A DNA stretch of 64,000 bases from Thermoanaerobaculia bacterium (GCA_036505535.1 DASXTI010000062.1:39249-103248), one strand, 5' to 3'. Shown: positions 5,016 through 46,155, numbered from the stretch's first letter. Notes: generated by a model not told the origin, from the sequence alone. A program made the numbers and translations.

Positions 5016-5050
5016 CAATCGTCAATCGCCAATCGCCAATCGCCAATTCC
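5016..5050. repeat. Five tandem heptamers CAATCGT-CAATCGC-CAATCGC-CAATCGC-CAATTCC, ending 3 nt before the next start codon
   Basis: Read directly from the sequence. It fills the DUF4126 / NYN-gene spacer. Same heptad as the right arm of the 46121-46155 element. Confidence 0.9.
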
Positions 5051-5053
5051 CCC

Positions 5054-5509
5054 ATGCCTTATTTCCTCGACGGCAACAACCTGATCGGCATCGTGCGGCG
5101 GACCTCTCGCCCCACGGAGGAGGATCGCTCCGCGCTGATCGCCGAGATCGCGGAGCGCCTGCGGAGGACGCGGGCGAAAGCGACCATTTTCTTCGACGGC
5201 CCGGCCAGGCAACAGGCGACCTCGCTCGGCAGCCTCACGGTTCGGGCACCGTCCTCGGGGACCGCCGACGACGCGATTGTGCGGGATGTCGAACGGGCGC
5301 GTGCTCCCCGCGAGGCCGTCGTCGTGACCGCGGATAGGGGGCTGGCGCGCCGCGTTCGGGACGCCGGAGGGCGAGTCTGGTCGCCTGCCCAATTCTTCGA
5401 GCGCTTCGGAGGGGAGCATGGGCCTCGGGCGGAGCGCCAGGACGTCGGACGCGTGGACGTCGAAGCCTGGATGCGGTACTTCGAGGATGAGAGAAATCGG
5501 GGTGGCTAG
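5054..5509 (+). CDS. NYN/PIN-like domain protein (YacP/Rae1-like predicted RNase)
   Basis: Internal ATG of ORF 4172..5509. MPYFLDGNNLIG...ATIFFDG...GTADDAIV...VVVTADRGL matches the YacP-like NYN pattern (DG.N...FDG...ADD.I...V.T.D). Confidence 0.7.
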   Translation: MPYFLDGNNLIGIVRRTSRPTEEDRSALIAEIAERLRRTRAKATIFFDGPARQQATSLGSLTVRAPSSGTADDAIVRDVERARAPREAVVVTADRGLARRVRDAGGRVWSPAQFFERFGGEHGPRAERQDVGRVDVEAWMRYFEDERNRGG

Positions 5510-5586
5510 CAGCGGCAAACTCGGAGACGGGGTCAGATCTCTCGGGATGCCGGCTTGTCGCGGGAGGTATCGCGGGGAGGCCTGAC

Positions 5587-5646
5587 GGGGTCAGGTCTTT
5601 GGGTGGAAGCGTTCGAATCGGCGATATCGCCCTGAGACCTGACCCC
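5587..5646 (+). other. 12-bp-stem hairpin (GGGGTCAGGTCT ... AGACCTGACCCC) directly 5' of rnpB, with an inner palindrome GGCGATATCGCC in the loop
   Basis: Seen in sequence. A third direct copy, GGGGTCAGATCT, lies at 5529-5540. Confidence 0.5.
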
Positions 5647-5662
5647 ATGTTAGGCTATACAC

Positions 5663-6077
5663 GGCTCCGAGCGGGCCACGCGATCGCTCCGAGAAATCGG
5701 AGAGGAAAGTCCGAACTCCACACGGGCGGCATGCCGGGTAATCCCCGGTCGCGGCGACGCGAAGGAAAGTGCCACAGAGAAGAGACCGCCTTCCGGAAGG
5801 ACGGCAAGGGTGAAACGGTGCGGTAAGAGCGCACCGCTCCGCCGGCAACGGCGGGGGCACGGTAAACCCCATGCGGAGCAAGGCCAAATAGGGGGGCAGC
5901 GGGCGCCCGTCCCGCCTCACATTCCGTGAGCTGCCTCCGGGTCGGCTGCTCGAGCCCGAGGGCGACCTCGGGACCAGAGGAATGATCGCGACCCCGGCCA
6001 GGGGGAATGGGGGACCGCAAGGTCCGCCGCCAACCTGGCGGGGCACAGAATTCGGCTTACAGGCCCGCTCGGGGCTC
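5663..6077 (+). ncRNA. rnpB: RNase P RNA, bacterial type A
   Basis: Universal conserved blocks: GAGGAAAGTCCGAACTCCACA; GGTGAAACGGTGCGGTAAGAGCGCACC; CACGGTAAACCCCATGCGGAGCAAGGCCAAATAGGGG; ACAGAATTCGGCTTACAGGCCCGCTCGG. The P1 stem pairs 5667-5677 with 6062-6072, followed by a T-run at 6078-6083. Ends are approximate (+/- 5 nt). Confidence 0.95.
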
Positions 6078-6090
6078 TTTTTTGAGTTGT

Positions 6091-6164
6091 TAGTCTGTAG
6101 TCGGTAGGTAGTCTGTAGTCGAGAACCTTGTTACCACCGACTACCGGCTACTAACTACCGACTA
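6091..6164. repeat. Imperfect inverted repeat built of heptads (TAGTCTG TAGTCGG .. TAGTCTG TAGTCGA / CCGACTA CCGGCTA CTAACTA CCGACTA)
   Basis: Seen in sequence, between the rnpB T-run and the ldcA ATG (6168). Lower GC than the flanks. Confidence 0.85.
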
Positions 6165-6167
6165 TTC

Positions 6168-7079
6168 ATGACTCCTTTCACTCGTCCTCCCCGCCTGAAG
6201 CCCGGAGCCACGATCGGCATCGCGGCCATTTCCGGCCCTGTCGACGAGAAGCCTCTCGCTTCGGGCATTCGTGCGCTCGAAGGCCGGGGGTACACGATCG
6301 TGCCGGCGTCCAACATCGGAGAACGCGCCGGGTTTTTCGCGGGATCCGACGAGCGTCGCGCCGCCGGTTACCGTGAGCTCCTTCGCGATCCTCGCGTCGA
6401 CGCCATCTTCTTCGCCCGCGGCGGCTATGGCGCCTCCCGAATCCTGCCGCTGTTGTCTGCCGACGAGATCCGCTCGCGGCCGCGAATCCATCTGGGTGGT
6501 TCGGATCTGACCGTCCTTTTCGCCTTCCTGGCCACCCACGCCCGGCTCGTCTCCTTTTACGGCCCGATGGTCGCCGTCGGGCTGGCGGAGGAGGGGCTCG
6601 ATTGGGAAGGCGTCCTCGCCGGCGAGAGCCCTGCCCTGCATTGCGTCGCCGAGGAGGACGTTCTCGCCGGTGGAGTCGGCCAGGGACCTCTGACGGGAGG
6701 GTGCCTGTCGCTCGCGGCCTCCCTGGCCGGCACCTCCGAGGCGATGGACGGAAGAGGGAGGGTCTTTTTCTGGGAGGACGTGGGCGAAGAGCCTTACCGC
6801 CTCGATCGAATGTTGACCCAACTGGAGCGGTCGGGTACATTCGATCAACTGCAAGCCATGATCATCGGCTCGATTTCGCCCGGCGCGCGCGGCGGTGGGG
6901 AGTCCCAGCCATCCGTCGATGCCTGGCTGCGGGACCGCTTCGCGGGCTCCCCCTTTCCGGTCGTGCGGGGCTTTCCCGCCGGTCACCTCCGCCGTTGCCG
7001 GACTCTGCCGCTCGGCATGCCGGTCCTTGTCGATGCGGAGCATGGGATCGTCAAATTCGCCGGCCCGGCCGTCGCCTGA
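6168..7079 (+). CDS. ldcA: LD-carboxypeptidase (peptidase S66, muramoyltetrapeptide carboxypeptidase)
   Basis: 303-aa ORF. S66 pattern: IGIAAISGP..., nucleophile region HLGGSDLTVL, C-terminal GFPAGH. Confidence 0.8.
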   Translation: MTPFTRPPRLKPGATIGIAAISGPVDEKPLASGIRALEGRGYTIVPASNIGERAGFFAGSDERRAAGYRELLRDPRVDAIFFARGGYGASRILPLLSADEIRSRPRIHLGGSDLTVLFAFLATHARLVSFYGPMVAVGLAEEGLDWEGVLAGESPALHCVAEEDVLAGGVGQGPLTGGCLSLAASLAGTSEAMDGRGRVFFWEDVGEEPYRLDRMLTQLERSGTFDQLQAMIIGSISPGARGGGESQPSVDAWLRDRFAGSPFPVVRGFPAGHLRRCRTLPLGMPVLVDAEHGIVKFAGPAVA

Positions 7080-7086
7080 GGGACGC

Positions 7087-7884
7087 ATGCCATCCGTGAA
7101 GGCCGTCTTCAAGTCGGGTCCCGGAGGCAGCGGGAAGAACCCGTACGAGAAGTTCCTGGTCAACCACCTCATGGGCGAGATCATCTTTTCCGAAGGAGAC
7201 ATCGGAACCGAGATGTTCATCGTCCAGTCCGGTACGGTGGAACTGCTGAAGGCGATCGGCGGCGAGACCCGAGTCTTGGCGACGTTGGAGAAAGGGGACT
7301 TCTTCGGCGAGATGAGCGTCCTCGAGGACGTGCCCCGCACGGCCTCGGCTCGGGCCAAGACGGACGTGGAGCTCGTCCGGATCAACGGCGCGACCTTCGA
7401 CGCGATGCTCAAGAGCAACACGGAGATTGCCGTCCGGATGATGCGCAAGCTGTCACGGAGGCTGCGCGAGGTGACGGCGATGCTCGAGGAGGCTCTCGGC
7501 CGCCGTGTGGCGGAGGAAGAGAAGCCGGCGCAGCGGAAGGTCGCGCCCGAGCACAACGCCTGCCGCTTGATCGGCGAGGAACCTCCCGCCGAGTTCTTTC
7601 TCAACCGCGAAGGGGACACGCTCGTCGGCCGGGCCGACCCGGTCACGGGAATCACGCCAGACGTGGACTTGACCCCGCTCGACCCGCAGCGCTCCACCTC
7701 CCGGCGTCATGCCAAGCTCTATCAGATGGGGGAGACCTACTACCTCATGGAAGAGATCGGGGTCATGAACGGGACTTACGTCAACGGGAATCGGCTGGCG
7801 ACCGGTGTCCCGGTCGCCCTGGGCAACGGCGACGTTCTCAAGTTCGGGCTCGTGTCGCTGACCTTCCAGGCTCCCGAGACGTAA
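7087..7884 (+). CDS. Cyclic-nucleotide-binding domain + FHA domain protein
   Basis: Internal ATG of ORF 6895..7884. cNMP phosphate-binding cassette GDFFGEMSVL...RTASARA. C-terminal FHA pattern (TLVGRA...SRRHAKL...NGTYVNGNRL...GDVLKFG). Confidence 0.8.
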   Translation: MPSVKAVFKSGPGGSGKNPYEKFLVNHLMGEIIFSEGDIGTEMFIVQSGTVELLKAIGGETRVLATLEKGDFFGEMSVLEDVPRTASARAKTDVELVRINGATFDAMLKSNTEIAVRMMRKLSRRLREVTAMLEEALGRRVAEEEKPAQRKVAPEHNACRLIGEEPPAEFFLNREGDTLVGRADPVTGITPDVDLTPLDPQRSTSRRHAKLYQMGETYYLMEEIGVMNGTYVNGNRLATGVPVALGNGDVLKFGLVSLTFQAPET

Positions 7885-9957: not shown

Positions 9958-9970
9958 CGGGCGCTAAGAG

Positions 9971-10960: not shown

Positions 10961-10981
10961 GGGCGGGGCTTGCCCCCGCCC
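10960..10981. terminator. GC-rich hairpin between convergent genes (GGGGCGGGGC-TT-GCCCCCGCCC, one bulge)
   Basis: Seen in sequence immediately after the stop at 10960. No T-run, so terminator function is inferred. Confidence 0.4.
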
Positions 10982-11003
10982 GTCAAGCGTCGACAGTCAA
11001 CCG

Positions 11004-13040
11004 TCAATTCTTCTTCAGCCTTATCGTCCCCGAAGACGTCCGCACGACGACCTTCTCCCCGCCGCCGTTCAAGGAGAGGGTCGCCCGCTGATGACCCGAG
11101 TTCTTGGAAATCGCGAGGTTGGCGAAGTCCGACCGGATCGCCGACTCACTTTCGTCCGCGCCGGTAACGATGAGCTCCACATCCGCCTTACAGTCGGCGG
11201 GGAGAACCAGCGAGACGTCCCCCCCCGAATTGTGGATCGTGACGCCGCCCTTGATCTCGCGCGATGTTACGCCGATGCGAATGTCGCCGCCGGCCGTAAC
11301 GGCGTGGACGCTTCCGCCTACATGAGGCGCGATGATGTCGCCGCCGGCGGTCTTCGCGTCCAAGCTTCCACCCACTCGCTCGATACGGAGGTCGCCTCCC
11401 GCCGTGTCCAAGAGAGCCGACCCGGAGACGCCGTCGGCGCGAATGTCGCCGGCCATCGTGATGGCCTTCAGATCGCCGGTGATCGCTCCGACGACGATGT
11501 CGCCGCCGAAGGACTTCAGGTCGGCGCCCGCGCCCACGCTTCCTACTCGGATCTCTCCGGAATGCGTCAGGATCCTCACGCGCCCCGACACGTTGCCGAC
11601 GCGGTAGTTTCCGCCGCTGGAAGTGGACAAGAAGTCGCCTGAGACCTCCCCTCGAACGACCTCCCCGTCGAAGACGGGCGGGGCCGGGGCCGGCATGATC
11701 AGGGGAGCCCCAGGCACACGAGCGACCGGGGGAGCGGGCGGGGCCGGGGCCACCGGCGCCGTGGGGGCCGTCGGTGGCATACGGATCACCACCCTGGGGT
11801 GAGGGACCCGAACTTCAACGCGCGGAATCGTCACCACGAAGGATCGGCGGCCAGAGATCAGCGGCTTGGCATCGGCTTCCTTCGTTCCCGCCGCGAGCAG
11901 CAGAACCGTGCCGTTCAGAGTCTCGAGCCGGATCTGGGCTCCCCCCCTTCCGATCGAGCCGGCGTAGTCCTGGCGCGGGTCGTCGATCCGGATGCGGCCA
12001 AGCTCCTTCTCGACCTCCCGCATGCCCTTCTCGGCATCGCGCATGCCCTCTTCGATCTGAGCCCCGACCTCCTTCATGGACTCGGACAGCTCCTGCTCGA
12101 GCTCGCGCAAGTCGACGATCGTCGTCTCCCCCTCCCCGTCTTGCACGACGACACGCTTGCCGTGATCCGCCTTCGGAGGATTCGGCGCCTTGGAAGGCTT
12201 CGGCGTCTTCGGCTCCTTGCGGATGGGCTCTTCGAGGGGCGTTTCCGGGATGCGCGGGGGGAGCGGGAAGGTCGAAGCGATCGTTCCGTTCATCGTCGAC
12301 GCGGTGAGATCGAACTTCGCATCCTTGGGCAGGGTCAGCGTCACCGAACCGTTGACCGACTGCAGCTCCACCGCGGTGCCCGGGAGCAACGCGGAAGCCG
12401 CGGCGTCGATCTTTCCGTTGACTGTCTGGGCCTCGACCGCCTTGCGGACGCCGCGGGCTTCGATGGAACCATTGACGCTCTCGAGCTCGAGGTCTCCGTC
12501 GCAATCCTTCACGCGCACGTCGCCGTTGACGGTCTTCAGTTCTGCCGTGACGCCGGGCGGCACCACGATGTCGTAACGCACCACGATCCGGCAATTGGGG
12601 CAGCCCGATCCGTGGCGGCCCTCGCGCCCGCGGGAGTTCCGCATGCCGGGCCAGCGTGTCTCCAGCGACCAACCGTCGTCGTCGCGGTTGCCCGCGACTT
12701 TCGTCTTCTCCAGGATCTCTTCGGCCCTCTTCTGCGTCGGCGCGAAGACTGTGACCGTGACGACGGCCGCGAACTCCTTTCCCGGGGCGGCGACGATGTC
12801 GCCCGAGATGTTCTCGATCTGGACCGACTGCCCGGGCGTCATCGGGCCTCGGAATCGGTCGACCCGGTTGGCCGAGGGCTGCTCGGCCTTCGCGACGCCG
12901 ACGAGCATCAGCAGCAGCCCAATCGCGAGAAGAATCCAGACGGCGAGTCGGCCGGCGCGAGCGGAGGCTCCCTCCGGCGCACTGGCGGATTTCGCAAGCT
13001 TGAAGGTATTCATCATCAGGGAGAGACGTTCTGTGGTCAT
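11004..13040 (-). CDS. Large DUF4097 (putative adhesin / beta-helix) protein with two DUF4097-like halves
   Basis: ATG at 13040 (MTTERLSL...) preceded by GGAGG. N-terminal hydrophobic helix. Repeated GD[IV]xV / NG[ST]I strands in both halves and a Pro-rich central linker. The upstream extension of ORF 11004..13379 overlaps the anti-sigma gene and was discarded. Confidence 0.75.
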   Translation of the reverse strand: MTTERLSLMMNTFKLAKSASAPEGASARAGRLAVWILLAIGLLLMLVGVAKAEQPSANRVDRFRGPMTPGQSVQIENISGDIVAAPGKEFAAVVTVTVFAPTQKRAEEILEKTKVAGNRDDDGWSLETRWPGMRNSRGREGRHGSGCPNCRIVVRYDIVVPPGVTAELKTVNGDVRVKDCDGDLELESVNGSIEARGVRKAVEAQTVNGKIDAAASALLPGTAVELQSVNGSVTLTLPKDAKFDLTASTMNGTIASTFPLPPRIPETPLEEPIRKEPKTPKPSKAPNPPKADHGKRVVVQDGEGETTIVDLRELEQELSESMKEVGAQIEEGMRDAEKGMREVEKELGRIRIDDPRQDYAGSIGRGGAQIRLETLNGTVLLLAAGTKEADAKPLISGRRSFVVTIPRVEVRVPHPRVVIRMPPTAPTAPVAPAPPAPPVARVPGAPLIMPAPAPPVFDGEVVRGEVSGDFLSTSSGGNYRVGNVSGRVRILTHSGEIRVGSVGAGADLKSFGGDIVVGAITGDLKAITMAGDIRADGVSGSALLDTAGGDLRIERVGGSLDAKTAGGDIIAPHVGGSVHAVTAGGDIRIGVTSREIKGGVTIHNSGGDVSLVLPADCKADVELIVTGADESESAIRSDFANLAISKNSGHQRATLSLNGGGEKVVVRTSSGTIRLKKN

Positions 13041-13056
13041 GCGGGTTACGCCTCCG

Positions 13057-14561: not shown

Positions 14562-14580
14562 TCGGCCCGGCCATCCAGAG

Positions 14581-14607
14581 AGACGTTGCCGGACCGGGAA
14601 GGTTTCT
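14581..14607 (-). promoter_or_regulatory. Candidate ECF-type promoter AGAAAC-N16-CGTCT upstream of the ECF sigma gene
   Basis: The minus strand reads GAAAC CTTCCCGGTCCGGCAA CGTCT, ending ~20 nt before the ATG at 14561. This resembles the generic ECF GAAC-N16/17-CGT architecture. Inferred only. Confidence 0.4.
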
Positions 14608-14749
14608 GTCTTCCGGGGTCAGGGTCGGCGACTCTTCCGATGCGGGAAAAGAACCGACCGGAGCCGCCGCTCGTGCCATCACGGGGTTGCCGCGGAGGGC
14701 AGGCACCTTCGGACTGATATCTTAGGCGGAATTTCCCGGGGGAGGGGCC

Positions 14750-16021: not shown

Positions 16022-16073
16022 GGCGTCTCGTCGGAGTTCGGGCCCGCTCGCGGATTCCTTCCCGGCGTCTTCT

Positions 16074-16101
16074 CGACTCCCGGCTTACGACTCCCATATA
16101 G
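16074..16101. repeat. Tandem 14-nt (2 x 7) repeat CGACTCCCGGCTTA / CGACTCCCATATAG just upstream of the M50 gene start
   Basis: Seen in sequence. Shares GACTCCCGGCT with 23965-23975 and, with one mismatch, with 6139-6149. Confidence 0.8.
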
Positions 16102-16110
16102 TCGCGCTGC

Positions 16111-17803: not shown

Positions 17804-17812
17804 GCCTCGACG

Positions 17813-23732: not shown

Positions 23733-23917
23733 TCGCGATCATCCCGACGGATCACTTCCTCATCATGACGCTCTATGCGTTGCTGGTGTCGGCGTTCTTT
23801 GCGCTTCTCTGGCGGGAGACCCGGCGGGAGAGGTTGAGGCTGTTTGGAATCCTCCTCGCGTCGCTCGTGCTGGGCGGACTGGCCGTGGCATGGCTGATGT
23901 ATCCGTTTCCGAGTTAG
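23729..23917 (+). CDS. Hypothetical 62-aa two-helix membrane protein
   Basis: ATGA overlap with the upstream gene and two hydrophobic segments. No recognisable family. Confidence 0.45.
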   Translation: MIAIIPTDHFLIMTLYALLVSAFFALLWRETRRERLRLFGILLASLVLGGLAVAWLMYPFPS

Positions 23918-23978
23918 GGGTCAGGAGTCAGCAGTCAGGAGAAAGATGAGACTCCCGACTCGCAGACTCCCGGCTAAG
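23917..23978. repeat. Imperfect inverted heptad element (GGGGTCA GGAGTCA GCAGTCA GGAG / GAGACTC CCGACTC GCAGACTC CCGGCTAAG)
   Basis: Seen in sequence. It starts on the upstream TAG stop and ends 9 nt before the lpxB GTG. Confidence 0.85.
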
Positions 23979-23986
23979 CTATTCCC

Positions 23987-25135
23987 GTGAACCTTCTCAT
24001 CTCGGCCGGCGAGGCGTCGGGCGACCTCCACGGTGCCCGCCTCCTGCAGGCTCTGAAGGCGGCCCGGCCGACGCTCTCCGCATTCGGCATGGGAGGCACG
24101 AGACTCGAGAGCGCAGGGCTCGAGCGGATCATCAAGTCGGAGGCGCTGTCGGTCGTCGGAATATCCGAAGTCCTCGAGAAGCTGCCCGCTCTCCTTCGTG
24201 CGCTGCACGCGTTGAAAGCGGCGGCCCGGAGTCGGCGGCCCGAAGCGGCGGTCCTCGTCGACTTTCCCGATTTTCACGGGCTTCTGGCGCGGAGGCTCCG
24301 GCGGGAGGGGGTTCCGTTGATCTATTACGTGAGCCCGCAGGTCTGGGCCTGGCGGCGCTGGAGGGCGCGTGTCATCGCGGAGCGCGCGCGGCGGATCATC
24401 ACGCTGTTTCCTTTCGAAGCCGAGATCTACAGAGAGCTCGGCGCCGACGCGGTCTGTGCCGGACATCCTCTCGTCGAGGACGTCCGGGAAGGATTGACCC
24501 TGCCGTCGCCGTTGCCGATCAAAACGCGGCGGCGTCTGGTCTTGCTTCCCGGCAGCCGCGGCGCCGAGTTGCACCGTCATTGGGAAACGATCGCCTCGGC
24601 CGCCTCGCGCCTCGCCGAGCGTTTCGACCTGGAGGTCGTCGCGATCCGGGCCACGGCGTTGCCTGAATCGCTCTTCGCCGGCGCCGCCGAGCGGGGTATC
24701 CGGGTCGTCGCGACGGGTGCGCATTCGATTCTGGCCTCCGCCGACCTTGCGTTCGTCGCTTCCGGATCGGCGACGCTCGAGGCGGCGCTCTGCGGAGCCC
24801 CGATGGTCGTCGTCTACCGGACTTCGGCCTTCAGCCACGCGATCGCAAAGTCTCTGGTCAGACTCCGCTGGATCTCGCTCGTCAACATCGTGGCGGGAGA
24901 GGAAATCGTGCCGGAGCTCATCCAGGAGAAGCTGACCGTGGAGAACCTGGAGCGGGCCGGCGAGGATCTGCTGCGTTCTCCGGGTCGCGCGGAGGCCATG
25001 AAGAGAGGCCTCTCACGGGTGGCTCGGGAGCTCGGCCCCCCTGGCGCCAGCGCTCGGGCCGCCGAGTACGTTCTTTCGGCCCTCGACCCCTCCGCCTCCC
25101 GCCTCCCGCCGGCCGCCTCCCGACTCGCCTTATGA
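23987..25135 (+). CDS. lpxB: Lipid-A-disaccharide synthase
   Basis: N-terminal LLISAGEASGDLHGARLL and overall LpxB-like length. GTG start. Confidence 0.9.
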   Translation: MNLLISAGEASGDLHGARLLQALKAARPTLSAFGMGGTRLESAGLERIIKSEALSVVGISEVLEKLPALLRALHALKAAARSRRPEAAVLVDFPDFHGLLARRLRREGVPLIYYVSPQVWAWRRWRARVIAERARRIITLFPFEAEIYRELGADAVCAGHPLVEDVREGLTLPSPLPIKTRRRLVLLPGSRGAELHRHWETIASAASRLAERFDLEVVAIRATALPESLFAGAAERGIRVVATGAHSILASADLAFVASGSATLEAALCGAPMVVVYRTSAFSHAIAKSLVRLRWISLVNIVAGEEIVPELIQEKLTVENLERAGEDLLRSPGRAEAMKRGLSRVARELGPPGASARAAEYVLSALDPSASRLPPAASRLAL

Positions 25136-28522: not shown

Positions 28523-28780
28523 ATGATTCAGTCGATGCCCGAAGGTGTGGACAGCAAGTTCCGGCTGGTGCTCTTGATTGCGCGGCGGGCCGAGCAGCTC
28601 ATGCGCGGCGCCCGCCCGAAGCTCGAGAGCGATCGGCCATTGAAACCGACGCGGCTGGCGGCGGCCGAATTCGACCAGAATCAGATCCGCTGGGGCCATG
28701 GCGAAGAGGGAGGCGTCCTCGAGGCGGCGGCGGAAGGCGCCGGCGAGGAAGAGCTGGTGGAGGAAGAAGCGGCCCGCTGA
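28523..28780 (+). CDS. rpoZ: DNA-directed RNA polymerase subunit omega
   Basis: 85 aa with SKFRLVLLIARRAEQL. The gmk-rpoZ order is conserved. Confidence 0.85.
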   Translation: MIQSMPEGVDSKFRLVLLIARRAEQLMRGARPKLESDRPLKPTRLAAAEFDQNQIRWGHGEEGGVLEAAAEGAGEEELVEEEAAR

Positions 28781-28805
28781 TTCCCCGGGCCTCTTGCCGA
28801 AACCC

Positions 28806-30050
28806 ATGAACCGCGCCCCGCGGATACTCCTCGGTGTCAGCGGGGGAATCGCCGCCTACAAGGCTGCGGAGGTCGTTCGGGGCTTGGTCCAGCGCGGCGC
28901 GGACGTCCACGTGGCCATGACTCGGGGGGCTCGCGAGTTCGTCGCGCCGCTGACCTTTGCCGCTCTCTCGAAGCACGAGGTATACACGGAGGTCTGGACC
29001 GACGGCGCCGCCGTCGACCACGTCTTGCTCGCCGAGGGATGCGATCTGCTGCTGGTCGCCCCGGCCACGGCTCACACGATCGCCAAGCTCGCCAACGGCT
29101 TCGCCGACGATTTCCTCTCGACGTATTTTCTGGCGCATCGGGGCGCCGTGCTCCTCGCGCCCGCGATGGAATCGGCCATGTGGGCCCACGAGGCGGTTCG
29201 GGCAAACGTAGAGCAACTTTCCGCGCGGGGCGTGCGGATGATCGGGCCGGACAGCGGATTCCTGGCCTCCGGCCACGAAGGAGTCGGCCGGATGGCCGAA
29301 CCGCCGTCGATCATCGAAGAGGCCTGGCGGATCGCGACCGGCGATCTCCGCGACTTGGCCGGGCTCCGCATCCTGGTGACGGCGGGGCCAACGCGTGAGC
29401 CCATCGATCCGATCCGGTTCCTGTCCAACCGCTCGAGCGGAAGGATGGGCTTTGCCCTCGCCGCGGCGGCCCGTGACCGAGGCGGCATCGTGACCCTGCT
29501 CTCCGGTCCGACCGATCTTCCGTACCCCCTGGGGGTTCGCGTTCTCGCCTTCGAGACCGCCGATGAGCTCCACGCGCATCTCGTGCGCGAATTCCCCGAA
29601 TGCGACGGCCTCGTGATGGCGGCGGCGGTCGCGGACTTCATCCCGGAGCGCCGCCCTCGCCGCCTTCATCGCGAAGAGGGGGGACAGTCGTTGCGTCTGG
29701 ATCCGGGTCGCGACCTTCTCGCGAGTCTCCAGCCTCTTAAGCGCAGGCAGACGGTCGTCGCCTTCGCGGCGGAGACCGAGGACTTCGAGCGACGCGGTCG
29801 GCAGAAGATGAAAGAGAAGGGGGCCGATCTCGTCGTCGTCAACGATGTCGGCCGCCAGGGCATCGGTTTCGATTCGGGAGACAACGAGGTCTTGATTCTC
29901 GGTCGGACAGGCAGCCGCGAAGCGATCTCGAGGCGCACGAAACGCGAGATCGCGGATCGAATCTGGGACGCGTTCCTCTCGGTGCGAGCCGCTCAGGGGC
30001 CGGACTTCTCCGCCAGCACCGTCCATTTGTCCGACAACCAGCCCAGGTAG
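28806..30050 (+). CDS. coaBC: Bifunctional phosphopantothenoylcysteine decarboxylase / phosphopantothenate--cysteine ligase
   Basis: ATG at 28806 within ORF 28698..30050. Flavoprotein motif ILLGVSGGIAAYKA, then the CoaB half (ILVTAGPTREPIDPIRFLSNRSSGRMG). Confidence 0.9.
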   Translation: MNRAPRILLGVSGGIAAYKAAEVVRGLVQRGADVHVAMTRGAREFVAPLTFAALSKHEVYTEVWTDGAAVDHVLLAEGCDLLLVAPATAHTIAKLANGFADDFLSTYFLAHRGAVLLAPAMESAMWAHEAVRANVEQLSARGVRMIGPDSGFLASGHEGVGRMAEPPSIIEEAWRIATGDLRDLAGLRILVTAGPTREPIDPIRFLSNRSSGRMGFALAAAARDRGGIVTLLSGPTDLPYPLGVRVLAFETADELHAHLVREFPECDGLVMAAAVADFIPERRPRRLHREEGGQSLRLDPGRDLLASLQPLKRRQTVVAFAAETEDFERRGRQKMKEKGADLVVVNDVGRQGIGFDSGDNEVLILGRTGSREAISRRTKREIADRIWDAFLSVRAAQGPDFSASTVHLSDNQPR

Positions 30051-30667
30051 CGGCGGGACGGGTAGATCCCGGCGAGCCGGAGTCCGGCCTCGGCGAGCTC
30101 CTCTCGAAGTATCCGCCGCGAAAACCGAAACTGCACCCGCGCCAGGAGTCCCAACTCGTGACGGATGCGCCAGCCGATGTATCGAAAGTTATACCGGTGA
30201 CGGAAATCGACAACGAGCCACCGGCGGCTGACCCGACGCATCTCCATGAGGATCCTCCGGCGGCCCTCGCGATCCAGATGGAACATGAAGCGGATCGCGA
30301 ACACGCAGTCGACCGAGGCATCACGGTACGGAATGGCGTCGGCGTCGCACTGCAAGAGCGGAAGCGTCGCGCCGAGTTTCTGGCGCGCCACGCGCATCAT
30401 TTCGAGCGAGATGTCCGCGGCGACCGCCGCGATCCCCCGCTTTCGCAAAAGCGGAACGAGCCGTCCGGTCCCGCAGGGCAAATCGAGCGCGCTGCCGATC
30501 GGCCACCCGCGCCGGGACGCCTCATCCAGCGCGTGGGCAATCGCCGCGAGGTCCCGGCGATTGCGCCGACGGCCGCGCGCCGTCTCGTATCGCCAGGAGT
30601 CGTAGCCATCGGCGACCGCGACATCCTGGTAGCGGGCCCTGGCTCGTTCGGAGGAGGAAGCGGCCAC
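29993..30667 (-). CDS. Class I SAM-dependent methyltransferase
   Basis: Motif I LDLPCGTGRL. 224-aa ORF. Its 3' end overlaps the coaBC 3' end by 58 nt (convergent). Confidence 0.7.
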   Translation of the reverse strand: MAASSSERARARYQDVAVADGYDSWRYETARGRRRNRRDLAAIAHALDEASRRGWPIGSALDLPCGTGRLVPLLRKRGIAAVAADISLEMMRVARQKLGATLPLLQCDADAIPYRDASVDCVFAIRFMFHLDREGRRRILMEMRRVSRRWLVVDFRHRYNFRYIGWRIRHELGLLARVQFRFSRRILREELAEAGLRLAGIYPSRRYLGWLSDKWTVLAEKSGP

Positions 30668-30723
30668 CGTGACGGGATTCTACCGGGCGGCCGTCGGCCG
30701 CCCACGGGCGTAGACTTCCGGGA

Positions 30724-32226: not shown

Positions 32227-32319
32227 CGAAACCTCCTCTCGACGCGAAGCGCGGCAATCTTCTCACAGGCCTCGCCGGTGGGCTTAGAATGCTCCTCGGA
32301 TCGCCGACTCTCGAGCACC

Positions 32320-32970: not shown

Positions 32971-32984
32971 ACGGCGCCGCGCGC

Positions 32985-35378
32985 ATGGTCGCGGTCGCTC
33001 TGCCCCTGCCACTCCGCCGAAGCTTCACCTACGCCGTCCCGGAAACTTGGGGGATGCCGACTCCCGGGGTCCGCGTTCGCGTTCCCTTTGGCGAGCGCGT
33101 ACTCACCGGTGTCGTTCTGCCGGACGCGCCGGTCGAGGCGCCCGGGCCGGCGCGACAGATCCTCGAGGTTCTCGAGGAGGGACCCGTGTGTTCGGCCGAG
33201 CTCCTGGCGACGGCCGCTCGGATCGCCGAGCGTTTCTTCGCGTCGACCGGAGAGGTTCTCAAGGGCGCTCTGCCGGCCCGCCTGGCCGCTTCGGGCTCCG
33301 TCCGGTACCGGTTGACCGAGAAGGGAGCCGTCGGGCGCGCGTCGGCTATTGAGATCGAGCGCCCGATCCTGGATTGTCTTGCCACCGGCGAGGCGGTCCG
33401 CGTCGTCGACCTTCCCGGCGCGGGAAAGGAACGGCACGAACGGCTTCGATCGCTCGAGGAGCGCGGGTGGGTCCGAGCCGTCTCCGTCGCCAAACCGCGC
33501 ACCCCCCGACCGGAGATCGCCTATACGCTGGGCCCGGCGTCCGACCTGCAGCATGAGTCGGCTCTCGGTCGAAGCCGTCGAGGTCGCGAGGTTCTGGACT
33601 TCCTGAGTACCCTCGGGAGGCCCGCCACCGCGCTCGAGATCCGTTTGGGCACCGGCTGCGGGCCCTCGGTACTGCGCTCGCTCGTAACGAAGGGCCTTCT
33701 CCGTTCCTTCGAGCAGACGCGGCGCCTGGAGTCCCCGGCACTCGCGGGAAGAGCGGGATCCGTCATCGAGCCGACGCGCGAGCAAGCCAGCGCCGTCGAG
33801 GCGATCGTCGCGGCGATTGCCGAGCGGCGCTACTTTCCGGCGCTCCTCCGGGGCGTGACGGGAAGCGGCAAGACCGAAGTCTATTTGCGCGCGATCCGGG
33901 CCGCCCTGGACCGCGGCCGCGGCGCCGTCTGGCTCGTTCCCGAGATCGCACTGACCCCCGTCTTCGCGCGCGAGTTGAAGCGCCAGTTTCCGGAGCAGGC
34001 TGCCGTCCTCCACTCCGCACTCTCCGAACGGGAGAGGGCCGAGGCCTGGAATCGCGTGCGCTCGGGAGAGGCCCGCGCCGTCATCGGTCCGCGCTCGGCC
34101 GCCTTCGCGCCCATCGCGGATCCGGGTCTCTTCGTCGTCGACGAGGAGCACGACGCGTCCTACAAGCAGCGGGAGGCGCCACGCTACGACGCGCGCGAGG
34201 TCGTCGCACTCCGTGCGAAGGAGAACAAGGCCGCGCTCGTCTTTGGGTCGGCCACCCCGTCGATCGAGGCGTGCTACGCCGCCGAGCGCGGCCGTCTCGC
34301 TCTCCTATCCCTGTCCGAGAGAGTGGCCGCGCGTCCGCTCCCGGAGGTTCGGATCGTGGATCTCCGCAAGGAGCCCTCCCGGCCCGATGAGAAGGGCGTG
34401 CCCCTCTTTTCTCATCCCCTTCTCGAGCGGTTGCGGGAGGTCTTCGGACGAGGAGAACAGGCGATTCTTCTGCAGCCGCGGCGTGGGTTCGCGCCGTTTC
34501 TGCTGTGCCGGGAGTGCGGCTTCGACTTTCGATGCAGCCGCTGCAGCGTTGCGCGCACGGTCCACAACCGCGGACGCTCCCTGCTTTGCCACTATTGCGG
34601 AGAGCGGGTGCCGCGGCCATCGCGATGCCCCGATTGCGCCGGCACGGTGCTCGAGGCGATCGGAGCAGGAACCGAACGAGTCGCCGACCGCTTCGCGGAG
34701 CTCTTTCCGGGCGTCGCCCATGCCGTTCTCGACCGGGACGCGGTGCGGCGGCGCGGCGCCGGCGCCGTCATCGAGGAAATGCAGTCCGGCAGGATTTCCT
34801 GCCTGATCGGTACGCAGATGGTCGCCAAGGGGCACGATTTCCCGAACGTGACCGCCATCGGCGTTCTCTCCGCCGACACGCTCCTGCACTTCCCCGACTT
34901 CCGGTCCGGCGAGAAGACGTTCCAGCTCCTCGCGCAGGTGGCCGGCCGAGCGGGGCGGGGAAAAGCGGCGGGAACGGTGCACGTTCAGACTTTTCACCCC
35001 GCGCATCCAGCGATCCGTCGCGCCGCCGACCACGATGTCGCGGGCTTCGCCCGGGCGGAGCTCGAGTTCCGCCGTACGTTCTTTTATCCGCCGTTCTCCG
35101 AGATGGCCTCGATCCTCGTCGCGTCTGCCGGCCGCGAGAAGGCCGAGATGGCCGCCGTGGAGATCGGCCGCGCATTCCGAAGTCAAGGCACTCGGCTACG
35201 GATCTCCGGTCCGGCTCCCGCGCCACTCGAGCGGCTCCAGGGAAGATGGCGCTTCCAGATCCTGCTCCGCGCTTCGGACCGGCACGCGATTCTCGCGGCG
35301 CTGGAGGAGGGCGTTCCGGAGCGCCCCCCGGCCGGCGTCCAGATCGCCGTCGATGTGGACCCGCAGGATCTGATGTAG
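32985..35378 (+). CDS. priA: Primosomal protein N' (replication restart helicase PriA)
   Basis: ATG at 32985 within ORF 32289..35378. MVAVALPLPLRRSFTYAVP, Walker A GVTGSGKTEVY, VVDEEHD, and a Cys-rich zinc region CRECGF..CSRCS...CHYCG...CPDC. Confidence 0.9.
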   Translation: MVAVALPLPLRRSFTYAVPETWGMPTPGVRVRVPFGERVLTGVVLPDAPVEAPGPARQILEVLEEGPVCSAELLATAARIAERFFASTGEVLKGALPARLAASGSVRYRLTEKGAVGRASAIEIERPILDCLATGEAVRVVDLPGAGKERHERLRSLEERGWVRAVSVAKPRTPRPEIAYTLGPASDLQHESALGRSRRGREVLDFLSTLGRPATALEIRLGTGCGPSVLRSLVTKGLLRSFEQTRRLESPALAGRAGSVIEPTREQASAVEAIVAAIAERRYFPALLRGVTGSGKTEVYLRAIRAALDRGRGAVWLVPEIALTPVFARELKRQFPEQAAVLHSALSERERAEAWNRVRSGEARAVIGPRSAAFAPIADPGLFVVDEEHDASYKQREAPRYDAREVVALRAKENKAALVFGSATPSIEACYAAERGRLALLSLSERVAARPLPEVRIVDLRKEPSRPDEKGVPLFSHPLLERLREVFGRGEQAILLQPRRGFAPFLLCRECGFDFRCSRCSVARTVHNRGRSLLCHYCGERVPRPSRCPDCAGTVLEAIGAGTERVADRFAELFPGVAHAVLDRDAVRRRGAGAVIEEMQSGRISCLIGTQMVAKGHDFPNVTAIGVLSADTLLHFPDFRSGEKTFQLLAQVAGRAGRGKAAGTVHVQTFHPAHPAIRRAADHDVAGFARAELEFRRTFFYPPFSEMASILVASAGREKAEMAAVEIGRAFRSQGTRLRISGPAPAPLERLQGRWRFQILLRASDRHAILAALEEGVPERPPAGVQIAVDVDPQDLM

Positions 35379-35446
35379 TCGTGAATCGTGAGCCATCAGA
35401 CGGCTCGTCGAGCCCGCTCCGGACTCATGACTCACGACTCATGACC
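35379..35446. repeat. Heptad inverted element (GTGAATC GTGAGCC ATCAGAC / GACTCAT GACTCAC GACTCAT GACC) flanking a small GC hairpin GGCTC-GTC-GAGCC
   Basis: Seen in sequence. It starts right after the priA TAG and lies upstream of accA (GTG 35479). Confidence 0.8.
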
Positions 35447-35478
35447 GCCTCTGGCGTCAACCCCGGTACAATCGTTTC

Positions 35479-40950: not shown

Positions 40951-40964
40951 GCCCCGCTGTCGTC

Positions 40965-42413: not shown

Positions 42414-42424
42414 GAGGAAGCAAC

Positions 42425-42970: not shown

Positions 42971-43473
42971 TGGGCGTCGAAGAGGAGGATCGCGCCGCGG
43001 TACGCCGAGAGAGACTTCTCGATCCCGCTCTCGTCTTCCACGGCCTTCCCGGGCGCACCCGCGACGAAGTTCTCGAGGAGCTCGCCTCTCATCTCGCCGA
43101 GCGCGGTCGCGTCAGCGCGCCGGGGGAGCTCGTCGACCGTCTTCTGGAGCGGGAGAAACTGGGCTGCACGGGGCTCGGCGGAGGAGTCGCGATCCCGCAC
43201 TGCAAGTGGAAGGACCTCGACGAAGTGGTCGTCGCCGTGGCATCGACCGAGCACCCTGTCGATTTCGCAGCGGCCGACGGAGTTCCGGTGAGTCTCGTCT
43301 TCCTCGTTGTATCCCCGGCGCAAGCGCCGGCCGCGCACCTGCAAACCCTGGCCCGCATTTCCCGTCTTCTCCGCACGCCCCGAGTCGTCGAGGGCCTCCG
43401 GCGTGCCGAGTCCTCCGAGAAGATGCTCGAGGTGCTACGCGAAGCCGAGGCGGGGCTTCCGGTGGCTCCGTGA
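42964..43473 (+). CDS. ptsN: PTS EIIA-Ntr nitrogen regulatory protein
   Basis: Within ORF 42268..43473. Active-site region GLGGGVAIPHCK. Start is the ATG at 42964 or at 42970. Confidence 0.85.
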   Translation: MLMGVEEEDRAAVRRERLLDPALVFHGLPGRTRDEVLEELASHLAERGRVSAPGELVDRLLEREKLGCTGLGGGVAIPHCKWKDLDEVVVAVASTEHPVDFAAADGVPVSLVFLVVSPAQAPAAHLQTLARISRLLRTPRVVEGLRRAESSEKMLEVLREAEAGLPVAP

Positions 43474-44453
43474 ACGGACCGCCGGGAAGCCGCAGCGCCA
43501 CACTTACCGCCGAAATCCTGCGGTCGCCGGCGCTCGAGGACCTCGAGTTACGCATCATCGCGGGAGAGGCCGGCTTCCAGCGCCCGATCTCCTGGGGGCG
43601 TATCCAGCGACCGGGCCTCGCGCTCGCCGGCTTTCTGCCGTACATCAAGCCGGGACGCATCCAGATCCTCGGCGAGAGCGAGCTCAACTACCTCGAGACG
43701 ATGCCTCCCGAGGTGCGACGTGAGCGGATAAGCTCGATTTGCGCGCTTCCCGTCGCGGCTTTCGTAATCACGAAAGGGCAGAGCCCGCCAGAAGACATCG
43801 CGCGCGAGTGCCGGTTGCGGAAGATCCCGCTCCTCGTCTCGGATCAGACGACCTCCGTCGTGATCCAGTCGATCACGCGTGTGCTCGAGGACGAGCTCGC
43901 GCCCTCGACCACGCTCCACGGCGTGCTCGTCGACGTCTACGGGATGGGCGTTCTTCTCCTCGGCGAGTCGGGTATCGGCAAGAGCGAGTGTGCGCTCGAC
44001 CTGGTTCACCGCGGCCATCGCCTCGTCGCCGATGACGCCGTCGAGATCCGCCGGTATCCGAACGGGGCGCTCGTGGGCCGCGCCGCGGAGATGATCCGAT
44101 ATCACATGGAGCTGCGCGGCATCGGGATCATCAACATCAAGCACCTCTTCGGAGTTTCCGCGGTGCGCTCGTCGAAGTCGATAGAGCTCGTCATCGAGCT
44201 CGAACGCTGGGACCCTGCCAAGAAGTACGACCGGCTGGGGTTGGATGGTGAGACCTACACGATCCTCGAGCGCGAGCGTCCGCGCCTGCGGCTTCCCGTC
44301 GCCTCCGGGCGCAACCTCGCGCTGCTGATCGAGATCGCGGCCCGCAACGAGCTCCTGAAGACGCAGGGCTACGACGCGGCCAAGGAGTTCTCGCGCCGCG
44401 TCGACGAGGAGATCGCCAAGAATGCGCACGCGGAGGGTGGGAGACGTCGGTGA
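43470..44453 (+). CDS. hprK: HPr kinase/phosphorylase
   Basis: GTG at 43470 within ORF 43206..44453. LHGVLVDVYGMGVLLLGESGIGKSECALDLVHRGHRLVADD. Confidence 0.9.
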   Translation: MNGPPGSRSATLTAEILRSPALEDLELRIIAGEAGFQRPISWGRIQRPGLALAGFLPYIKPGRIQILGESELNYLETMPPEVRRERISSICALPVAAFVITKGQSPPEDIARECRLRKIPLLVSDQTTSVVIQSITRVLEDELAPSTTLHGVLVDVYGMGVLLLGESGIGKSECALDLVHRGHRLVADDAVEIRRYPNGALVGRAAEMIRYHMELRGIGIINIKHLFGVSAVRSSKSIELVIELERWDPAKKYDRLGLDGETYTILERERPRLRLPVASGRNLALLIEIAARNELLKTQGYDAAKEFSRRVDEEIAKNAHAEGGRRR

Positions 44454-45331
44454 CGGCGGCGTCCGCCCCGGCGCATCCCGCGGCGCCCGAGAGCCTCGTT
44501 ATCGTGACCGGTCTCTCAGGCTCGGGCAAGAGCTACGTGAACAAGTGCCTCGAGGACATGGGATACTTTTGTGTCGACAACCTGCCTCTCGAGCTCGTCG
44601 AGCCGCTGCTCGATCGGGTCACCTCCAAACGCGTGGGCATCATCCTCGACGTGCGGAATCCCGATTTTGCGGCCCGCTTTCCGGGAATTCTCGACCGGGT
44701 CCGGCGGCGCGTGCCGGGCGCGCGGTTGCTTTTCCTCGACGCGACGGAAGAGTCTCTCATTCGGCGCTTCTCGGAGACGCGGCGGCCGCATCCGCTCGCC
44801 GGAAGAGTCTCCCTGCTCGAGGCACTGCGGAAGGAGCGCGAGATGCTCGAAGAAGTGCGCGCCGTTTCCGACGTCGTCGTGGATACGTCGGCCATGACGG
44901 TTCACGAACTGCGCTCCTTCATGCAAAAGACTTTCGTCGGGGACCCGGAAAGCCCCGGAATGGTGATCTCGGCCACCTCTTTCGGCTACAAGTTCGGGAC
45001 TCCGCACGACGTCGACCTTCTGTTCGACGTGCGGTTCCTCGCCAATCCTCACTTCGTGCCGGAGCTGAAGGGAAAAACGGGCACGGACCCGGCGGTGGCT
45101 GCTTACATCGAGAAGGATCCGGAGACCGCCGTATTCCTCGGCCAGCTTGTGCAGTTCCTCGATTATCTCCTCCCGCGATTCGACAAGGAACGCAAGAGTT
45201 ACCTTTCGATCGGCATCGGGTGCACGGGGGGGAAGCACCGTTCGGTCTACATCGCCGAAGAGCTCGCCCGGCTCCTGAAGGAGAAGGGCTATCCGGTCAG
45301 GGTGTCCCACCGAGACGCGACGCGCGAGTGA
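44450..45331 (+). CDS. rapZ: RNase adapter protein RapZ (P-loop NTPase)
   Basis: P-loop VIVTGLSGSGKS. C-terminal GCTGGKHRSV motif. Confidence 0.9.
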   Translation: MTAASAPAHPAAPESLVIVTGLSGSGKSYVNKCLEDMGYFCVDNLPLELVEPLLDRVTSKRVGIILDVRNPDFAARFPGILDRVRRRVPGARLLFLDATEESLIRRFSETRRPHPLAGRVSLLEALRKEREMLEEVRAVSDVVVDTSAMTVHELRSFMQKTFVGDPESPGMVISATSFGYKFGTPHDVDLLFDVRFLANPHFVPELKGKTGTDPAVAAYIEKDPETAVFLGQLVQFLDYLLPRFDKERKSYLSIGIGCTGGKHRSVYIAEELARLLKEKGYPVRVSHRDATRE

Positions 45332-45348
45332 GATAATGAGCGGCTTCG

Positions 45349-45789
45349 ATGATTGGAATTCTCCTCGTCACACACGGCAGACTCGCCGAAGAGCTCCGCG
45401 CAGCCGCCCTCACCATCCAGCCCGGCTTGGAGCGCGTCGTCGCCCTGGCGCTCGAGTGGAGCGAGACGGGTGAGGATGCGCGCGAGAAAATTCGCAGGGC
45501 TCTCGAGCAGGCCGACGAGGGAGATGGCGTCGTCATTCTGACCGACATGTTCGGAGGCACACCGACCAACCTCACGTTGCCGTTCCTCCGAAAGGAGCGG
45601 GTGGAGATCGTGACGGGGGTCAATCTCCCGATGATCCTCAAGTGTGCGTCCCTCCAGAGGAGTGGCCGCCCTGTCACCGAAGTCGCCCACGTGGCCAAGG
45701 ATCGCGGCCAGAGGTCGATCTACGTGGCGTCGGATCTGCTCGCCGAAGAAGGGGCGCCGGAGGTGGTGTCGGAGAAACAGGAATCGTGA
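45349..45789 (+). CDS. PTS EIIA component, mannose/fructose family (ManX-like, stand-alone)
   Basis: MIGILLVTHGRLAEEL with the conserved His, and DMFGGTP. Confidence 0.85.
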   Translation: MIGILLVTHGRLAEELRAAALTIQPGLERVVALALEWSETGEDAREKIRRALEQADEGDGVVILTDMFGGTPTNLTLPFLRKERVEIVTGVNLPMILKCASLQRSGRPVTEVAHVAKDRGQRSIYVASDLLAEEGAPEVVSEKQES

Positions 45790-46055
45790 TCGAGCGCGAG
45801 CTCGCCATTCGAAACCGACTCGGCCTCCACGCCCGCGCGGCCGCGAAGTTCGTTCAGACGGCCAGCCGCTTCCGGTCGGAGGTCAAAATCCGTAAGAACG
45901 GGGAAGAGGTGGACGGTAAGAGCATTCTCGGCATTCTTCTGCTCGCCGCCTCGCAGGGAACTCGGATCACGCTCGCCGTATCGGGCCCGGATGAAGCCGC
46001 CGCGTTCGCGGCGGTCGAGGAACTGATCGCCCGCAGCTTCGACGAGGAAGAGTAG
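45786..46055 (+). CDS. ptsH: Phosphocarrier protein HPr/NPr
   Basis: GTG at 45786 within ORF 45642..46055. GLHARAAA (His-15 region) and GKSILGIL (Ser-46 region). Confidence 0.9.
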   Translation: MIERELAIRNRLGLHARAAAKFVQTASRFRSEVKIRKNGEEVDGKSILGILLLAASQGTRITLAVSGPDEAAAFAAVEELIARSFDEEE

Positions 46056-46060
46056 GAGGA

Positions 46061-46155
46061 ATTGACGATTGAAGATTGGCGATTGATGATTGGGTGCGGC
46101 CGCCTCGCCTCTTTCCATCTTTCAATCGGCAATCATCAATCGTCAATCTCCAATG
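46061..46155. repeat. 5 + 5 inverted heptads: ATTGACG ATTGAAG ATTGGCG ATTGATG ATTGGGT ... TTCAATC GGCAATC ATCAATC GTCAATC TCCAATG
   Basis: Seen in sequence. It fills the ptsH-ptsI spacer, and the last heptad contains the ptsI ATG (46153). Confidence 0.9.

Follow-up and report, generated by a model that had tools for sequence, protein, structure and literature searches.

What occupies the oddly long, lower-G+C spacers between the housekeeping genes of a compact bacterial genome? We addressed this for 64,000 nt of DNA from a Thermoanaerobaculia bacterium (GCA_036505535.1, DASXTI010000062.1:39249-103248; this whole stretch is called the window here), in which the initial annotation had listed six spacers (at 5016, 6091, 16074, 23917, 35379 and 46061) as built from tandem 7-nt units. 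Five of the six (5016, 6091, 23917, 35379 and 46061) were found to carry heptad arrays, while the sixth, at 16074, holds two copies of GACTCCC and fits a promoter better. The reading we favour, with about even confidence, is that these elements are intergenic hairpins built by slippage from lineage-specific heptanucleotide arrays, resembling in their behavior the repetitive extragenic palindromic (REP) elements of other bacteria. Judged by its sequence, the source is a Thermoanaerobaculia-like acidobacterium of soil: the window AccA is 80-85% identical to proteins of metagenome-assembled genomes labelled Thermoanaerobaculia or Acidobacteriota, and soil metagenomes yielded contigs 99.6-100% identical to the window.

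A period-7 signal was observed with Tandem Repeats Finder at 5015-5047, 6091-6120, 6136-6164, 23920-23938, 35422-35445, 46061-46092 and 46122-46148, and so at every listed site but 16074. Counting self-matches of at least 18 of 21 positions in 21-nt segments of the window gave 12 cases at period 7 and none at periods 4-6 or 8-12. Five of the six period-7 arrays of the window fell within its ~2.9 kb of intergenic DNA and one within its ~61 kb of coding DNA, with none at periods 8-11. To sample relatives, we took loci around ldcA relatives (62, metagenomic), around accA (80, genomic) and around ptsI relatives (6) (individual loci and contigs are given below by L numbers). In the ldcA relatives, 46 kb of intergenic DNA contained 25 arrays, compared with 2 in their 334 kb of coding sequence, and loci of other phyla contained 3 period-7 arrays in 1.18 Mb. 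Period 7 was the sole enriched short period, mostly intergenic, in both the window and the relatives. Spacers bearing arrays were also confirmed as lower in G+C (0.48-0.60 versus 0.66 for the window as a whole, or 66%).

The arrays consisted of 4-6 contiguous units (median 4) and fell chiefly into two unit families in the window genome: CAATCGN, observed in three elements (those we call E1 and E6, and an array at 10981), and NAGTCNN/GACTCNN, observed in three others (E2, E4, E5) and in one more copy just upstream of the window. Within ~68 kb, the interval that this count covers, there are 3 loci of the CAATCGN type and 4-5 of the AGTC/GACTC type. An architecture shared without a shared sequence, as originally described, was borne out by these differing cores, which also differ across relatives at one and the same spacer. 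The proposed invariant core of 4-5 nt fared less well; core positions were steadier than positions 5-7, only weakly beyond chance (P ~0.02). The position of all listed elements between plus-strand gene pairs carried no information, as 20 of the 24 window spacers are co-directional and this is the background state. CRISPR arrays were correctly dismissed, since the units are 7 nt long, contiguous and without spacers, while CRISPR requires repeats of 23-50 nt with unique spacers of like length.

All elements are described here on the plus strand. E1 (5016-5050) is a single arm, CAATCGT CAATCGC CAATCGC CAATCGC CAATTCC (period 7, 4.7 copies, 92% matches), occupying the 41-nt spacer from the stop of a DUF4126 gene (5010-5012) to the ATG of an NYN/YacP-like gene (5054). 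E2 has two arms. The first (6091-6121, detected by Tandem Repeats Finder) reads TAGTCTG TAGTCGG, an additional GTAG, TAGTCTG TAGTCGA and begins 16 nt beyond the 3' end (6075) and T-run of the RNase P RNA; the second (6136-6164), ACCGACT ACCGGCT ACTAACT ACCGACT A, is complementary to the first and stops 3 nt short of the ldcA ATG (6168). E4 likewise pairs a first arm GGGGTCAGGAGTCAGCAGTCAGGAG (23917-23941), whose first base is also the final base of the upstream stop TAG (23915-23917), with a hairpin partner GACTCCC GACTCGC AGACTCCC (23950-23971), after which come a TAAGCT box (23975-23980), 6 nt, and the lpxB GTG (23987). The first arm of E5 (35375-35394), GTAGTCG TGAATCG TGAGCC, includes the priA stop TAG (35376-35378); its second arm, GGACTCAT GACTCAC GACTCAT GACC (35421-35446, also detected by Tandem Repeats Finder), precedes a conserved TACAAT box (35467-35472) and the accA GTG (35479). 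E6 lies between ptsH (HPr) and ptsI, with ATTGACG ATTGAAG ATTGGCG ATTGATG ATTGGGT (46061-46095) starting 5 nt after the ptsH stop TAG (46053-46055) and CAATCGG CAATCAT CAATCGT CAATCTC CA (46123-46152) directly abutting the ptsI ATG (46153). The placement of the arms agreed with the original description: in the four paired elements (at 6091, 23917, 35379 and 46061) the first arm begins between 3 nt ahead of and 16 nt past the upstream stop or RNA end, and the second, G-poor arm leaves 0-32 nt to the downstream start.

We also observed arrays outside the listed sites. A single-arm array of the E1/E6 family missed by the first reading (10981-11007), CGTCAAG CGTCGAC AGTCAAC CGTCAA, lies between convergent genes after a G+C-rich hairpin and overlaps the stop of a minus-strand DUF4097 gene. 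The sole intragenic period-7 array (25086-25128) comprises about five CCGCCTC units at the lpxB 3' end, just ahead of the start of an overlapping ABC transporter gene at 25132. On contig L082 (2757-2866), from the same population and ~1.5 kb upstream of window position 1, a GTAGTCN/NGACTAC inverted pair runs from the uvrB stop codon, with a 30-nt, A+T-rich loop that is itself palindromic (GAATATATTAGTAATTGCTAATATGTTCC). A heptad array of GGATTTN/TCGGATT was common to two otherwise unrelated loci, L159 (12046-12080, at a called gene start) and L118 (1715-1750). The octamer GGGGTCAG, one copy of which opens E4, occurs 9 times in the window versus 2.4 expected, with 5 of the copies intergenic.

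The paired arms were predicted to form strong hairpins, as the initial annotation had supposed, with folding energies of -33.7 kcal/mol for E2 (z -4.2), -29.1 kcal/mol for E4 (z -2.5), -35 kcal/mol for E5 (z -3.8) and -52.7 kcal/mol for E6 (z -6.9). E1 was predicted to be unstructured (z +1.2, less structure than shuffled sequence) and the fold at 16074 was weak (z -1.4). Each paired element gives a long hairpin with regular mismatches, whose two feet lie at the upstream stop or RNA end and at the promoter or start of the next gene. At the foot of the E6 stem, GAGUAGGAG, comprising the ptsH stop codon and a Shine-Dalgarno (SD)-like GGAG, is paired with CUCC..UGCUC flanking the ptsI AUG. The orthologous L008 element (z -6.2), with ~7+7 units versus 5+5 in E6, likewise pairs its stop region with start-flanking sequence. 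For 15 inverted pairs (E2, E4, E5, E6 and 11 pairs of related loci) the variable positions were re-dealt while the core was kept, and the fold became weaker in 12 of the 15 (mean z ~-1.8), so that complementarity of the arms reaches past the core. The G-rich arm came first and the C-rich arm second in 13-14 of these 15 pairs, an arrangement that reads alike from either strand. The stems contained 40 G-U pairs versus 14 A-C mismatches, an imbalance expected if the sense strand is the one that folds. A terminator role in the canonical intrinsic sense did not hold up, since a T-run follows none of the heptad hairpins and none was among the terminator-like sites of the window; the sole terminator-like site at these elements is the RNase P RNA end (6062-6076 plus TTTTTT).

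Comparison of near-identical strains pointed to how the arrays change. Over 7-11 kb, contigs L081-L083 carried 2-10 substitutions relative to the window (at least 99.8% identical), and the only indels were one 7-nt CAATCGC unit missing from E1 in L082 and the 4-nt GTAG in E2, which the window carries as an extra relative to L081-L083 and L093. As the indels of these strains fall only inside the arrays, the arrays slip. L093 may represent a third, longer E2 allele, at a contig edge. E4, E6 and the 16074 site were identical in the recovered strain contigs; for E5, no AccA product exactly matching that of the window is recorded. The orthologous arrays of L143, L144 and L145 varied in copy number.

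In many close relatives the orthologous spacers were short. The DUF4126-NYN spacer, 41 nt in the window with E1, was ~8-10 nt in most relatives, and the 97-nt ptsH-ptsI spacer containing E6 corresponded to 18-21 nt without an array in six relatives (L155-L160) with a PtsI identity of 80-84%. The 100-nt priA-accA spacer (E5) was reduced to 29 nt in L155, and in L001-L008 this spacer lacked the E5 element while its TACAAT box was kept. The RNase P-ldcA spacer, ~92 nt in the window (E2), was near zero in several relatives; it was minimal in 7 distinct sequences, contained another, G+C-rich hairpin in about 12, and contained heptad pairs in 6, with six different cores. We interpret the elements as insertions or expansions into compact spacers and as dispensable, given that these orthologous spacers are short and without arrays. 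Their absence from many close relatives, which the initial annotation had named as grounds for rejecting the elements, counts against a conserved essential role and not against the phenomenon itself. Abundance also varied, from ~8 arrays in the 64 kb of the window and 9 in 14 kb of L126 to ~1 in 100 kb of L155-L160. The ptsH-ptsI spacer of L008 contained the same CAATC core pair as E6, and L008 is more distant than the six relatives without an array. The distribution is thus more than one of simple decay.

The G+C-rich hairpin at the RNase P-ldcA spacer of relatives was observed as CAGCCGCGGCGGTCGC-TTCG-GCGACCGGCGGCTG followed by AGAGAG, conserved right after the RNase P RNA 3' end and before ldcA, at loci L097, L098, L105, L109-L112, L114, L116, L123, L124, L129 and L131. 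Its stem changes seem compensatory by eye, and its possible roles are those of a terminator or of a small regulatory RNA. A dispersed REP-like repeat was ruled out for it, as it was present at that spacer alone.

The initial annotation had also linked the elements to downstream genes lacking an SD site, and this link proved not to be specific. The gene map of the window was built from codon bias and contained 60 called genes, of which 16 (27%) had an SD-like tetramer (GGAG, GAGG or AGGA at -18 to -5) and 44 (73%) did not, and the lineage appears partly leaderless. A TAnnnT box was observed ~6-9 nt before the start in 7 of the 28 genes with an upstream gap, among them lpxB, accA and the M50 peptidase gene, which are three of the six downstream genes in the original list. 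Plus-strand boxes were TATAGT (16097-16102), TAAGCT (23975-23980), TAGACT (30710-30715), TACAAT (35467-35472) and TACACT (50783-50788), and the minus-strand boxes TAGAAT and TAGAGT belong to gene starts at 30667 and 58283. With the accA box conserved in L001-L008, L155 and L159, these boxes suggest leaderless transcripts. At the 16074 site (two GACTCCC copies 14 nt apart, 16073-16102), the spacer period-7 score was not raised and a sigma-70-like match, TCGACT-18-TATAGT, lies 8 nt ahead of the start in a position that fits a leaderless start; a promoter of the M50 peptidase gene (start 16111) fits this site better than a heptad array.

Several other explanations of the units were considered and rejected. 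As -35/-10 boxes only the 16074 site was convincing, the units having no A at -10 position 2, and a promoter match in E6 (TTGACG-17-GATGAT) was a mere product of the repeated TTGANG. A three-frame stop barrier, supplied by heptads with TAG or TGA, was discarded as the number of frames with a stop equaled the shuffled expectation. Seeding from a common single-copy motif was not indicated by CAATCG, TAGTC or GTAGTC, none of which was enriched singly in intergenic DNA outside arrays; single-copy GACTC was about two-fold enriched there, in small numbers. GANTC methylation sites could not be the common core, as CAATC and TAGTC do not match GANTC.

Under the reading we favour, the arrays would grow and shrink by slipped-strand mispairing within formerly very short spacers. 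The elements would be quickly gained and lost, probably acting only as generic transcript stem-loops, provided that the hairpins form at the RNA level. Such stem-loops could protect or define the upstream RNA 3' end and insulate it from the next gene. At ptsH-ptsI, where there is no promoter between the genes, the hairpin would hide the ptsI start until the stem is opened by a ribosome that terminates at the stop paired with it. A number of observations weigh against this account. Relatives manage with spacers of 8-30 nt, so any role is non-essential. The flanks of L143 and L144 are 94.5% identical, yet the two contain unrelated cores at one site, while the arms of L141 and L145 are identical at 62 of 63 positions with flanks only 86% identical. 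One unit is found again at 3-4 separate loci within ~68 kb, and slippage alone does not account for unit recurrence, inverted pairs of one handedness and core swaps. No T-run stands behind any heptad hairpin, the sense fold was stabler than the antisense fold in just 10 of 16 elements, and the excess of G-U pairs could also come from a coding-strand C-to-T mutation bias. E1 and the 10981 array are single arms without a partner. Finally, the periodicity, the intergenic and lineage-restricted distribution, the presence or absence as insertions, the complementarity of the arms and the unit-level polymorphism are observed, and every functional step is inferred, as is the route by which one unit sequence reached several loci.

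The alternatives divide over function and over origin. If the elements were neutral by-products, slippage would favour 7-nt units, tolerant spacers would expand, and an occasional fold-back or template switch would copy an inverted partner, all without function. We consider this unlikely, though it accommodates the unit-sized and sub-unit indels among near-identical strains, the absence of elements beside the same housekeeping genes in many close relatives, the many unrelated cores and the near-chance core constancy; flush contact with stop and start codons would be a trivial outcome of insertion into spacers of 8-30 nt, and the Xanthomonas repeats are likewise without an identifiable gene-regulatory role (PMC4692102). 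A purely neutral process sits poorly with the strong handedness bias (13-14 of 15), the L141/L145 arms at 98% versus flanks at 86% identity, complementarity of variable positions above shuffled controls, and the presence of one unit at several loci per genome: E1, E6 and 10981 in the window; E2 and the post-uvrB element in L082 (2757-2866); two GTAGTCN loci in L126; and two GAATGCN loci in L142. Unit recurrence, handedness and core swaps leave room for a mobile or templated origin, whose probability we would call low. In one form, the elements would be non-autonomous, cassette-like palindromes comparable to REP elements or miniature inverted-repeat transposable elements, installed and replaced at gene 3' ends through a dedicated enzyme or through templating, either of which would recognise the heptad. 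Presence or absence at precise sites, same-core families, the non-repeat junction GGTAGTCCAGA common to two L126 copies, the unrelated cores at the L143/L144 site, burst-like abundance in some lineages and the CAATC pair shared at ptsH-ptsI by the window and distant L008 to the exclusion of six closer relatives all fit such an origin, the last being equally explicable by loss from the six. We nevertheless regard it as doubtful, because no transposase, REP-associated tyrosine transposase (RAYT) or integrase was found among the window genes or the called genes of related loci, loops and flanks differ from copy to copy, and target-site duplications were not seen. A somewhat more doubtful extension is that, in some Thermoanaerobaculia-like lineages, heptad hairpin cassettes are put in place at gene 3' ends, exchanged and homogenised by a dedicated sequence-specific process (by enzyme or template switching), and that the hairpins might then couple a stop and the next start translationally across ~100 nt, as the ptsH-ptsI fold suggests. 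Such a process would jointly explain the same-core families, the single handedness, the core swaps at 94.5% flank identity and the burst-like differences in abundance.

Two functional alternatives received still less credence. Arrays of protein-binding sites, whether on DNA (ribbon-helix-helix proteins, at least four heptads) or on RNA (cold-shock or S1-type domains covering 6-7 nt), are improbable mainly because of the number of unrelated cores: at least 10 within one clade and at least 2 within one genome, each needing its own protein, with cores swapped at one site between close relatives. The 4-6 contiguous units with a median of 4 do match the four-heptad minimum of the pSM19035 centromere (PMC9499535), direct and inverted arrangements are both present, each genome has a preferred set of units, and comparable suggestions exist for Geobacter (IHF/HU) and Beggiatoaceae (S1, Csp, CsrA). 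No candidate ribbon-helix-helix gene was found in the window, which contains just the housekeeping S1 and HU, and the constancy of the core, in keeping with such binding, is statistically weak as reported above. That the G-poor arm by the start is an SD-independent translation enhancer, in the form of an unstructured C/A-rich leader, or that copy number serves as a phase-variation switch, we hold to be slightly more improbable again. E1 is less structured than shuffled sequence, adjoins an SD-less start and varies in copy number among co-occurring strains, and the TAACTGA repeats of Beggiatoaceae are similarly placed (PMC4679880). Starts without an SD are nonetheless usual here (44 of 60), the G-poor arm of paired elements is buried in the predicted stem, three of the genes downstream possess a leaderless-type promoter that follows the element, elements also lie between convergent genes and behind an RNA gene, and the flanking genes are housekeeping genes and not contingency loci.

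The genes of the window are all of housekeeping type and include uvrC, ldcA, recG, a trpS/tyrS-type synthetase, scpAB, cmk, rpsA, HU, lpxB, an msbA-like gene, gmk, rpoZ, coaBC, priA, accA, recJ, lptC/A/B, rpoN, hpf, phosphotransferase system (PTS) genes, parAB, lptFG, ahcY and metK. An rpoZ-like open reading frame (RNA_pol_Rpb6, 28523-28780) overlaps the called coaBC start (28698-30050) by ~80 nt, and coaBC probably begins further downstream than called. A class A RNase P RNA (5668-6075) was the sole match to Rfam 15 at the gathering threshold in the window, where the heptad arrays matched no Rfam 15 family, and a tRNA scan of the window found none. A 12-bp perfect inverted repeat, GGGGTCAGGTCT/AGACCTGACCCC, located past the stop of the NYN gene and ahead of the RNase P RNA, was observed at 5586-5650 (listed together with 5529-5536), with a long hairpin at z -4.6. 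An A+T-rich, partly palindromic stretch (GATAATATATATTATGTTAAATAAGG) lies at 52397-52577 in the 181-nt parB-lptF/G spacer.

Reports of heptanucleotide intergenic repeats go back to 1990 and span several phyla, none of the repeats having an established function or mechanism of origin. The clade described here offers a natural experiment on them, combining close genomes with and without elements at the same spacers, unit-level polymorphism in one population, and the same handedness as in Xanthomonas. Two questions are thereby opened to comparative genomics and metatranscriptomics: why the units have seven bases, and why inverted pairs stand beside gene 3' ends. For annotation, the elements explain the oddly long, lower-G+C spacers of a compact genome, and such spacers should not be taken for regulatory elements conserved for function.

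The closest functional analogue is provided by REP elements and bacterial interspersed mosaic elements (BIME), which are short imperfect palindromes between co-directional or convergent genes, strain-variable and dispensable, and form stem-loops at mRNA 3' ends. The window elements are similarly intergenic, strain-variable, dispensable and capable of forming stem-loops. A REP is one conserved palindrome, while the elements here are tandem heptads sharing a 4-5 nt core, with loops and flanks that differ. REP elements are linked to RAYT, a Y1 transposase, and those bound by RAYT carry a conserved GTAG; the unit of the E2 family is GTAGTCN, a resemblance that may or may not reflect a link.

By architecture, the elements fall within the class of intergenic heptanucleotide repeats already known from other bacteria, for which this clade of Acidobacteriota is a new lineage; we found no report of heptanucleotide repeats from Acidobacteriota in the literature. 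The description in the initial annotation was largely right, save for the SD argument and one of the six sites, but it could match the elements to no known family, and counterparts do exist in Xanthomonas (PMC4692102), Geobacter metallireducens (PMC2700814) and Beggiatoaceae (PMC4679880). These three papers also summarise how heptanucleotide repeats are generally in excess among bacteria, with the polymerase-slippage idea offered for this, and cyanobacterial short tandemly repeated repetitive (STRR) sequences, as cited within PMC4692102, comprise several genome-specific intergenic heptanucleotide families. A more distant parallel is the centromere/operator of plasmid pSM19035, in which at least four contiguous 7-bp heptads, direct or inverted, are bound by the ribbon-helix-helix protein omega (PMC9499535). 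The window elements also have four or more contiguous 7-bp units in both orientations. The plasmid-borne site has a single unit, a cognate protein and a partition function, while here many cores occupy chromosomal housekeeping spacers.

The TAACTGA repeats of Beggiatoaceae and cyanobacteria are present in 2-6 copies ending a few nucleotides before starts without canonical ribosome-binding sites, and S1, Csp and CsrA have been proposed as their binders in Beggiatoaceae (MacGregor 2015, PMC4679880). E1 and the second arm of E6 similarly end close before start codons. The units and taxa differ, and while the TAACTGA sets are nearly all direct repeats (inverted in 1 of 170; PMC4679880), inverted pairs predominate here. 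The TAACTGA unit, reported from Bacteroidetes as well, was present in no window array and was approached by one L126 arm alone (3407-3450), AAACTGA TAACCGA CAACTGA.

More similar are the Geobacter metallireducens class 3 elements, with five tandem MTYCTGA heptanucleotides in opposite-strand pairs, and the four-copy GGACCGG elements of the same genome, which the authors read as sites of a global regulator (IHF/HU) (Aklujkar et al. 2009, PMC2700814). As in our elements, these are species-specific families of 4-5 units (7-9 nt there), mostly in inverted pairs at variable distance, located in housekeeping spacers (proB-proA there) and missing from sister species or lineages. They differ in unit sequence, and some of the Geobacter families are 8-9 nt long or intragenic.

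The greatest likeness was observed with the Xanthomonas GGGAATC, or (GGGANTN)n, repeats, variable heptamers of mostly about four units, ~90% intergenic and chiefly between co-directional genes, which lie nearer the upstream gene's 3' end and form 70-75 convergent, stem-loop-capable inverted pairs per genome (Rehm et al. 2015, PMC4692102). Their length and sequence vary among close species, and a role in gene regulation could not be identified (PMC4692102). The window elements are likewise convergent inverted pairs with the G-rich arm first, near gene 3' ends. In contrast to (GGGANTN)n, the window units CAATCGN, TAGTCNG, GTCAGNA and GACTCNN hold no G-tract, so that a G-quadruplex is not open to the window arrays; in a relative (L142, 7158-7192) the G-rich arm does have runs of at least 3 G. 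They differ further from the Xanthomonas repeats in having at least two unit families per genome, in belonging to the phylum Acidobacteriota, and in often filling the spacer from stop to start.

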